A stretch of DNA of 64,000 nt. It comes from Escherichia coli (GTDB lineage Bacteria; Pseudomonadota; Gammaproteobacteria; Enterobacterales; Enterobacteriaceae). Shown here one piece after another: positions 59,120-61,332 of this stretch. The stretch lies in NCBI RefSeq assembly GCF_050920415.1, contig NZ_CP169309.1; one strand, 5' to 3'. Within the stretch, counting starts at the first letter, position 1; each line of letters opens with the position of its first letter. The notes under the pieces are model-generated. The model searched no databases. It was not told where the DNA came from and saw nothing but the letters and a program-made list of their open reading frames with translations. A program made the position numbers and the translations under genes.

Positions 59120-59127
59120 CCGAGGTT

Positions 59128-59211
59128 GCCTGATGCGGCGCTTAACGCGTCTTGTCAGGCCTACATTGTACTGAACCCCTGGACGGATAAAGTGTTTACG
59201 CCGCACCCGAC
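59128..59211. repeat. Two REP-like palindromic units downstream of trmJ
   Basis: gcctgatgcggcgcttaacgcgtcttgtcaggcctac and ggacggataaagtgtttacgccgcacccgac. Confidence 0.65.
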
Positions 59212-59255
59212 AACAGGTACAAACGCCACGATAAAAAAATGGCACTGAAGGTTAA

Positions 59256-59388: not shown

Positions 59389-59877
59389 ATGAGACTGACA
59401 TCTAAAGGGCGCTATGCCGTGACCGCAATGCTTGACGTTGCGCTCAACTCTGAAGCGGGCCCGGTACCGTTGGCTGATATTTCCGAACGTCAGGGAATTT
59501 CCCTTTCTTATCTGGAACAACTGTTTTCCCGTCTGCGTAAAAATGGTCTGGTTTCCAGCGTACGCGGGCCAGGCGGTGGTTATCTGTTAGGCAAAGATGC
59601 CAGCAGCATCGCCGTTGGCGAAGTAATTAGCGCCGTTGATGAATCTGTAGATGCTACCCGTTGTCAGGGTAAAGGCGGCTGCCAGGGGGGCGATAAATGC
59701 CTGACCCACGCGCTGTGGCGTGATTTGAGCGACCGCCTTACCGGTTTTCTCAACAACATTACTTTAGGCGAACTGGTTAATAACCAGGAAGTGCTGGATG
59801 TATCTGGTCGTCAGCATACTCACGACGCGCCACGCACCCGCACACAAGACGCGATCGACGTTAAGTTACGCGCTTAA
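59389..59877 (+). CDS. iscR: Fe-S cluster biogenesis transcriptional regulator IscR
   Basis: 162-aa [23 protein letters not shown]..., Rrf2 HTH and C92/C98/C104 cluster ligands. Confidence 0.97.
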
Positions 59878-59880
59878 TTT

Positions 59881-60002
59881 AACCGTCCTGTTTCGTGTTG
59901 CATCTGCGTTGACTGCACATACTCACTCCGGTCACTTACTTATGTAAGCTCCCGGAGATTCGTAAGTTTGTCAACTTGCTGAAACCCGAAACAGTTAGGT
60001 TA
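59881..60002. repeat. ERIC/IRU-like imperfect palindromic element within the iscR-iscS spacer
   Basis: Reverse strand reads GAATCTCCGGGAGCTTACATAAGTAAGTGACCGGAGTGAG...AACGCAGATGCAAC, closely matching the ERIC core (both ERIC primer sites); nested inverted repeats centred on cttacttatgtaag. Confidence 0.7.
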
Positions 60003-60117
60003 AAGATAACAAGATATTAGAATCAGGCCGGGGCGTCTCGCGCTCCGTAAACACGGTCGTACATCCAGCCGGTAGCCTGGTTCCTTGCATTGAGTGATGT
60101 ACGGAGTTTATAGAGCA

Positions 60118-61332
60118 ATGAAATTACCGATTTATCTCGACTACTCCGCAACCACGCCGGTGGACCCGCGTGTTGCCGAGAAAATGATGCAGTTTATGAC
60201 GATGGACGGAACCTTTGGTAACCCGGCCTCCCGTTCTCACCGTTTCGGCTGGCAGGCTGAAGAAGCGGTAGATATCGCTCGTAATCAGATTGCCGATCTG
60301 GTTGGCGCTGATCCGCGTGAAATTGTCTTTACCTCTGGTGCTACCGAATCTGACAACCTGGCGATCAAAGGTGCTGCTAACTTTTATCAGAAAAAAGGCA
60401 AGCACATCATCACCAGCAAAACCGAACACAAAGCGGTACTGGATACCTGCCGTCAGCTGGAGCGCGAAGGTTTTGAAGTCACTTACCTGGCACCGCAGCG
60501 TAACGGTATTATCGACCTGAAAGAACTCGAAGCAGCGATGCGTGACGACACCATCCTTGTTTCCATCATGCACGTAAATAACGAAATCGGCGTGGTGCAG
60601 GATATCGCGGCTATCGGTGAAATGTGCCGTGCTCGTGGCATTATCTATCATGTTGATGCAACCCAGAGCGTGGGCAAACTGCCTATCGACCTGAGCCAGT
60701 TGAAAGTTGACCTGATGTCTTTCTCCGGTCACAAAATCTACGGCCCGAAAGGTATCGGTGCGCTGTATGTGCGTCGTAAACCGCGCGTACGTATCGAAGC
60801 ACAAATGCACGGCGGCGGTCACGAGCGCGGTATGCGTTCCGGTACTCTGCCTGTTCACCAGATCGTCGGTATGGGCGAAGCCTATCGCATCGCAAAAGAA
60901 GAGATGGCGACCGAGATGGAACGTCTGCGCGGCCTGCGTAACCGTCTGTGGAACGGCATCAAAGATATCGAAGAAGTTTACCTGAACGGTGACCTGGAAC
61001 ACGGTGCGCCGAACATTCTCAACGTCAGCTTCAATTACGTTGAAGGTGAGTCGCTGATTATGGCGCTGAAAGACCTTGCGGTTTCTTCCGGTTCTGCCTG
61101 TACGTCAGCAAGCCTCGAACCGTCCTACGTGCTGCGCGCGCTGGGGCTGAACGATGAGCTGGCACATAGCTCTATCCGTTTCTCTTTAGGTCGTTTTACT
61201 ACTGAAGAAGAGATCGACTACACCATCGAGTTAGTTCGTAAATCCATCGGTCGTCTGCGTGACCTTTCTCCGCTGTGGGAAATGTACAAGCAGGGCGTGG
61301 ATCTGAACAGCATCGAATGGGCACATCATTAA
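60118..61332 (+). CDS. iscS: Cysteine desulfurase IscS
   Basis: 404 aa from ATG 60118 ([19 protein letters not shown]...), PLP-lysine [12 protein letters not shown], active-site SSGSACTS. Confidence 0.97.

Follow-up and report, generated by a model that had tools for sequence, protein, structure and literature searches.

Directly after the stop codon of iscR, the Escherichia coli DNA analysed here (a stretch of 64,000 nucleotides, hereafter the window) carries a full-length copy of the ERIC (IRU/RU-1) family, a non-autonomous, MITE-like palindromic repeat, followed by an intact copy of the iscRS "iscR stability element" (Rfam RF01517). What is known to protect iscR is not the ERIC, since RF01517 accounts for the whole of the 111-nt spacer of K-12 and is intact beside the ERIC in the window. 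We consider it highly probable that the ERIC is a largely neutral structured spacer between iscR and iscRS, and that the RyhB-dependent protection of iscR operates independently of it.

The function of ERICs has been an open question since 1990-91. The copy described here lies at a junction with well-characterised mRNA decay (RyhB, iscRS) and is naturally dimorphic within the species (e.g. O111 strains), so that an isogenic comparison at this site would be a clean test of whether an ERIC is stabilising, destabilising or neutral for the gene upstream. ERICs and their strain-to-strain variability are textbook knowledge, and a review notes that 14 ERIC sites absent from K-12 have already been catalogued in other E. 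coli strains (PMC10969869), a set that may include the present one. No paper found in our literature search mentions an ERIC between iscR and iscS.

The ERIC between iscR and iscS

The genes trmJ, iscR, iscS, iscU, iscA and hscB all lie on the + strand of the window, the last 24 kb of which are 100% identical to E. coli strain MFDS1022581. As the initial annotation had it, the palindrome sits in the 240-nt gap between iscR and iscS (59878-60117), though alignment to the family consensus, together with the terminal inverted repeats, sets limits slightly wider than the 59881-60002 given there (Table 1). The iscS-iscU and iscA-hscB spacers of the window (27 and 95 nt) are without an ERIC. Upstream, the trmJ-iscR spacer contains REP-like palindromes (GCCTGATGCGGCG...) at 59120-59245, with two sub-threshold matches to the Rfam family naRNA4, and this gap is also polymorphic in length, with 269 nt in the window, ~451 nt in a K-12-type genome and ~300 nt in O157:H7.

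Table 1. Features of the iscR-iscS junction, in window coordinates
Feature	Position	Strand	Basis and remarks
iscR coding sequence	59389-59877	+	TAA stop 59875-59877; ORF list and RefSeq annotation of the identical locus of strain MFDS1022581
ERIC (IRU/RU-1), full-length, 127 nt	59878-60004	+	consensus orientation; first base directly after iscR stop
Left terminal inverted repeat arm	59878-59902	+	repeat search; base of hairpin in MFE structure
Right terminal inverted repeat arm	59980-60004	+	repeat search; folding
Conserved ERIC core (ERIC-PCR primer region)	59920-59963	+	inner arms 59926-59939/59944-59957
Compensatory pairs, E. coli/C. amalonaticus	59912/59971, 59921/59963, 59927/59956, 59931/59952		
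Flank block with four ERIC-linked SNPs	60005-60018	+	SNPs 60010, 60015, 60016, 60018
iscRS "iscR stability element" (Rfam RF01517), intact	60007-60116	+	117.8 bits, model 1-110/110, E 9e-31
iscS coding sequence	60118-61332	+	ATG at 60118; Shine-Dalgarno GGAG 60103-60106; ORF list, sequence, RefSeq annotation

The suspected relation of the palindrome to ERIC was confirmed. Aligned without gaps at equal length and in the + orientation, the segment matches 92/127 positions of the published E. coli ERIC/RU-1 consensus, for which we used the 127-nt sequence given by Delihas 2007 (PMC2759123, Table 1a, from Wilson & Sharp 2006). The corresponding value for 2000 ungapped shuffles is 32.9±4.9 matches with a maximum of 51; a control by gapped global alignment proved uninformative (mean of 71 matches), and the ungapped control was used instead. 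The outer arms are 25 nt long and 80% complementary, and the central 44 nt match the sequences of the two ERIC-PCR primers, both of which are contained in the consensus, at 18/22 positions each. A chance palindrome is rejected by the identity to the consensus and by the folding relative to shuffles.

The copy aligns end to end with E. coli ERICs at cusC-cusF, aceF-lpdA, pgk-fbaA and downstream of ybiT, and a consensus built from these four reproduces the published, canonical ERIC core. Three of them lie inside the cusCFBA, aceEF-lpd and pgk-fbaA gene clusters. When the window copy is compared to the other E. coli copies and to the consensus the identity is 72-74%; the copy most similar to it is the one that Citrobacter amalonaticus carries at this site (85.8%), which is closer than any E. 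coli paralogue. The family is dispersed, with 33,237 places in 5426 complete E. coli genomes (median of 7 per genome), these relatives being 70-73% identical over ~115 nt and found in essentially all of the genomes. Nearly all of the places (33,211) are chromosomal, and no annotated feature lies under the matches listed.

Reviews describe ERIC as a 127-bp MITE that has terminal inverted repeats, carries TA at both ends and is transcribed together with its neighbours (PMC3184786, PMC10969869, PMC2759123, PMC2229807). The window copy begins with TT (59878-59879) and ends with AA (60003-60004), as compared to TA...TA in the family. At the K-12-type empty site, TA follows directly after the iscR stop, and hairpin inserts there in Raoultella keep TA at both ends. 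The termini thus fit an old insertion at TA that has since mutated, without proving it.

There is no ERIC family in Rfam. Three sRNA families, V_AS5 (Vibrio), CssrA (Shigella) and RmaA (Erwinia), align over the full length of their models at only 20-22 bits, far below their thresholds, and we do not treat this as membership; the alignments cover 59882-60004 (-), 59833-59932 (-) and 59860-59965 (+). The V_AS5 consensus visibly has ERIC-like motifs, and these annotated sRNAs may be ERIC-derived transcripts. A separate observation concerns the reading frame: the ERIC is in frame with iscR and leaves 34 codons open after the TAA (59878-59982; FNRPVSCCICVDCTYSLRSLTYVSSRRFVSLSTC), a frame that resembles the published RU-1 translation, so that loss or readthrough of the iscR stop would give IscR an ERIC-encoded tail.

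Presence and absence at the site

Strain-to-strain variation, which the initial annotation had expected, is found at this site. A 601-nt query across it is fully covered in 490 of the 5426 complete E. coli genomes (~9%) and is broken by a 129-nt gap in the other ~4930, while a query centred on the ERIC finds it in 489 genomes, in 486 of them at 99% identity or more. The remaining ~91% are without the ERIC and keep an iscR-iscS spacer of 111 nt. Relative to the window, empty alleles of the K-12 type lack a block of 129 nt, and those of the E. albertii type one of 125 nt. Within E. coli the ERIC is thus dimorphic, being either present or absent. Carriers include O111:H8, O111:H2, O111:NM, O139:H1, O158:H23 and O9:H10. 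Whether the reference has the element had been left undecided by the initial annotation; it is absent after iscR in K-12 MG1655, as it is in O157:H7 and in the ST131-type strain MNCRE44, and the best match to the window copy in K-12 MG1655 is the cusC-cusF ERIC, at 72% identity.

The four SNPs immediately 3' of the ERIC (Table 1) perfectly separate 6 ERIC+ from 7 ERIC- alleles, E. albertii included, and the ERIC+-type 32-mer at 60003-60034 occurs in exactly 490 genomes, the same number as the ERIC itself. There are therefore no excision products with that flank, and repeated, recent, precise excision is rejected as the source of the E. coli ERIC- alleles. Over 2317 flanking sites the alleles are not grouped by ERIC state. 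For instance, the ERIC+ allele of AHM9C61I differs from K-12 at 17 sites and from the window at 52, and that of O111:H8 differs from O157:H7 at 24. A single clonal origin in one E. coli lineage is rejected for the same reason. The ERIC+ copies differ from each other by 0-1 nt, and their flanks by 0.7-2.9%. From these comparisons we infer two short haplotypes, both stable and covering at least 59878-60018, which recombination would have moved between backgrounds. A related observation comes from E. coli 33E (L095), in which the last 40 nt of iscR (window 59837-59874) and the empty site (TAAAAGATAAAAAG) match E. albertii (L011) rather than other E. coli, suggesting a short recombinant tract from E. 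albertii.

To place the site within the family, we scanned single genomes of each species for an 18-nt motif of iscRS, which gave 78 stretches, of which ~57 are Enterobacteriaceae isc loci; the scan is incomplete in that E. coli, E. fergusonii and S. enterica subsp. enterica were not included. A bare spacer of 110-124 nt is seen at 17 species loci (E. albertii, some Citrobacter, Trabulsiella, Kosakonia). A full ERIC at the same position and in the same orientation as in the window is seen at 10 (C. amalonaticus, C. werkmanii, C. youngae, Enterobacter asburiae, Phytobacter), and a full ERIC that is reversed and lies a few bases further downstream of the stop at 2 (another C. amalonaticus and a Citrobacter MAG). 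A shorter hairpin insert of 50-86 nt with predicted energies of -18 to -33 kcal/mol is seen at 28 species loci (Klebsiella, Raoultella, Kluyvera, Salmonella arizonae and diarizonae). In all, 40/57 of the sampled non-E. coli species (70%) have a hairpin insert between iscR and iscS. The K-12 spacer is thus a minority state in the family, and what has been found in K-12 on the decay of iscRSUA concerns a kind of spacer that most of the sampled Enterobacteriaceae species lack.

With two of the copies reversed, the site must have received at least two independent insertions. A particular case is found in two genomes named C. amalonaticus (L046 and L056), which carry the ERIC in opposite orientations, one directly after the stop in the window orientation and the other reversed and ~8 nt after it; a single named species shows independent insertions at nearly one position. 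In many of the 50-86-nt inserts the arms can be aligned to the terminal repeats of ERIC, and the shorter hairpins of Klebsiella, Raoultella and Kluyvera appear to be ERIC-derived, while those of Salmonella resemble reverse-oriented ERIC copies. An ERIC origin is less certain for the inserts in Kluyvera, Salmonella and Lelliottia. Full-length ERICs also occur in other spacers of these operons. Citrobacter sp. wls619 (L064:2249-2375) and a Klebsiella MAG (L034:1919-2045) have one in consensus orientation 4 nt after the iscS stop, in the iscS-iscU spacer, and Salmonella diarizonae, Klebsiella indica, Pseudenterobacter and Enterobacter have reversed copies 12-95 nt after the iscA stop, between iscA and hscB (L071:4447-4572, L045:4630-4754, L041:6488-6613, L038:6299-6425).

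Folding, the iscRS element and constraint on the hairpin

Folded as RNA, the 127-nt ERIC reaches -45.1 kcal/mol compared to -24.3±3.2 kcal/mol for dinucleotide shuffles (z -6.6, 0/200), which bears out the large stable structure that the initial annotation had foreseen in the spacer; its antisense strand folds to -53.9 kcal/mol (z -7.8). The ERIC would be co-transcribed within iscRSUA. Lying at an A/T-rich site just 3' of the iscR stop and just 5' of iscRS, it would place a hairpin of about -45 kcal/mol between the iscR stop and the iscRS structure, and would set that structure 127 nt further from ribosomes terminating at iscR.

The palindrome had also been put forward as a good candidate for the structure that protects the upstream iscR segment after RyhB pairing, and this part of the proposal is not supported. 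According to secondary sources, RyhB pairs upstream of iscS, and the iscR part of the transcript survives through a strong intergenic structure between iscR and iscS (PMC5040110, PMC12533949). That structure is RF01517, which in a covariance-model search matches only the adjoining 60007-60116, at full length and far above its gathering score of 40; the match is wholly outside the ERIC, which contributes nothing to it. The iscRS element is intact and keeps the same helices whether it is folded alone or within the whole spacer, with the ERIC as a separate domain in the MFE structure, and it is the sole content of the K-12/O157-type spacer (111 nt). The 2009 work of Desnoyers on RyhB and the protection of iscR was reportedly done in K-12.

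The apical hairpin of the iscRS element (60032-60042) is itself polymorphic within E. coli, reading GGGGCGUCUCGCGCUCC or GGAGUGCUAAAUACUCC; the stem is altered on either side, O139:H1 and O158:H23 have mixed forms, and either type occurs with ERIC+ and with ERIC- alleles. Three of the ERIC-linked SNPs (60015, 60016 and 60018) lie within 60014-60018, which is the 5' strand of the outer helix in the Rfam structure of iscRS. The strand with which it pairs (60104-60108) overlaps the Shine-Dalgarno sequence of iscS. This helix has 5/5 pairs in K-12 and 3/5 in the window, the other two being non-canonical in the Rfam structure. The ERIC+ haplotype could thus differ in iscS expression or translation independently of the ERIC, and an expression difference between haplotypes could stem from these helix SNPs rather than from the ERIC.

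Several comparisons suggest that the hairpin has been maintained. Between the window and C. amalonaticus, the ERIC identity given above exceeds the 75.0% found at 4-fold degenerate sites of iscR/iscS, and between C. werkmanii and E. asburiae the values are 97.7% and 68.7%. Among ten full-length copies, 13/43 stem pairs are changed on both sides, compared to 5.9±1.5 for shuffles and 0-3 for slid controls, a count that is to be read knowing that the structure was derived from the window sequence and that covariation is also inflated when family members, palindromic already, insert independently. Between the ERICs of E. coli and C. amalonaticus there are 18 differences, 8 of which form four compensatory pairs (Table 1; permutation P=1e-4). 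Selection on the sense RNA through tolerance of G.U pairs was tested and not found: the stem mismatches comprise 13 G.U and 25 A.C, the latter being G.U on the antisense strand, and there is thus no sense-strand RNA signature. The antisense strand folds better in 8/10 copies. Judged from the alignments, maintenance of the hairpin is real, but because a sense-strand signature is missing and the covariation is limited in the ways just described, it is not assignable to a function of the iscRSUA transcript.

A possible, though in our view rather unlikely, explanation is that the hairpin is kept at the level of DNA without any cellular function, being palindromic by descent and having its complementarity restored by template switching, while short-tract homologous recombination carries the allele from lineage to lineage and even across genera. 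Template switching corrects mismatches within quasi-palindromes, and it would have to do so at the iscR-iscS locus. The strand-symmetric or antisense-favouring mismatches would be expected on this account, as would the incongruence of ERIC state with flanks seen in AHM9C61I and the near-uniformity of the E. coli ERIC+ copies relative to their flanks. The ERICs of C. werkmanii and C. youngae (L010/L022) and those of Enterobacter asburiae and Enterobacter sp. RIT418 (L016/L082) are likewise near-identical (97.7%) between the two genera, with flanking 4-fold degenerate sites that are only ~69-72% identical, which points to transfer of a short segment between genera or to unusually strong constraint. 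By itself, however, a DNA-level process leaves the persistence of inserts in 70% of the sampled species unexplained.

Possible effects on iscR and comparison with known elements

If the ERIC is a largely neutral spacer, as we favour, its hairpin may still have an auxiliary effect on iscR, and may modestly alter the stability of the iscR 3' end in either direction. One possible direction is destabilisation. De Gregorio et al. 2005 are cited as finding that stop-adjacent Yersinia ERICs in one orientation lower the levels of the upstream transcript (PMC2229807, PMC10969869), the proposed cause being the exposure, by ribosomes, of an RNase E site in the 3' arm (PMC3184786, PMC10969869, PMC2229807). 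By analogy, ribosomes terminating at the iscR stop would hold the left arm open and expose such a site in the right arm, and the cut would separate iscR from iscRS and lower iscR mRNA relative to iscSUA. The geometry is suitable in that the ERIC starts 0 nt after the stop, and masking the first 15 nt after it (fold of 59893-60004) leaves the right arm largely single-stranded. Both the mechanism and its dependence on orientation are reported in the reviews (PMC2229807, PMC10969869, PMC3184786). Copies 0-6 nt from a stop are mostly in the window orientation (iscR-iscS, iscS-iscU, cusC-cusF, ybiT) and those at least 12 nt away are reversed (iscA-hscB, pgk-fbaA, aceF-lpdA), which fits the reported bias, though it is only from these seven loci that we infer the window orientation to be the destabilising ("B-oriented") one. 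Against this, where the right arm of the consensus has the A/U-rich stretch GAATTATTTT, the window copy has GAAACAGTTA. We regard such an effect at iscR as improbable, and yet, because of the orientation and stop-distance pattern and the right arm freed by masking, it is as plausible as a protective one.

It is similarly doubtful, though worth stating, that the hairpin 3' of iscR is a cis-regulatory module of the isc operon that was exapted from ERICs (full, shortened or reversed), is selectively maintained across Enterobacteriaceae and tunes the ratio of IscR to IscSUA. Such a module might insulate iscRS and the helix sequestering the Shine-Dalgarno sequence from terminating ribosomes, or might determine the 3' terminus of the iscR fragment; E. 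coli would then be dimorphic, with an ERIC+ haplotype that moves between lineages by recombination together with its linked changes in the Shine-Dalgarno helix. The observations that count against a mere passenger are conservation at the same site beyond that of 4-fold sites, compensatory changes, inserts in 40/57 species and the SNPs in the Shine-Dalgarno helix.

That the ERIC hairpin is the protective structure, or a second barrier to 3'-5' exonucleases after RyhB-induced cleavage of iscSUA, is very unlikely: the hairpin is very stable, lies directly 3' of iscR, is kept by compensatory changes and has counterparts at the site across the family, but the curated protective element is the neighbouring 110 nt, intact here and making up the entire spacer of K-12 and of 91% of the complete E. 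coli genomes, the iscRS element downstream would stop an exonuclease before it reached the ERIC, and the stem has no sense-strand signature. A role as terminator or promoter is rejected, with neither signal present: 59878-60020 has no terminator-like site, in the sense of a G+C-rich hairpin with a U-run after it, on either strand (the ERIC hairpin is followed by AAAGATAACAAG), and no promoter-like signal was found in the ERIC.

Our favoured reading, a largely neutral ERIC beside an intact iscRS element, can be set against several known systems. The window copy shares its length, palindrome, terminal inverted repeats and core with ERIC/IRU/RU-1 as originally described (Sharples & Lloyd 1990; Hulton et al. 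1991; Wilson & Sharp 2006), and like other members it is intergenic within an operon, multi-copy and variable in presence between strains; it departs from a typical ERIC in its TT...AA termini and in its low identity to the E. coli copies and consensus. REP/BIME and Correia elements, which are intercistronic mRNA stabilisers or RNase III targets, are also co-transcribed repeated palindromes able to alter segmental decay, but they belong to other sequence families with other sizes and nucleases, and the REP-like elements of the window lie upstream of iscR rather than in the iscR-iscS spacer. The iscRS element (RF01517; Desnoyers et al. 2009) has the spacer and the transcript in common with the ERIC, and both are stable RNA structures 3' of iscR. 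Unlike the ERIC, it is present in all E. coli, has no repeats elsewhere and is not palindromic overall, and the two sequences do not overlap. The closest functional parallel is with the stop-adjacent Yersinia ERICs, in which, as here, the ERIC abuts a stop codon in a polycistronic mRNA and the left arm would be covered by ribosomes, whereas in the window the candidate A/U-rich site of the right arm has diverged and a strong protective structure lies directly downstream.
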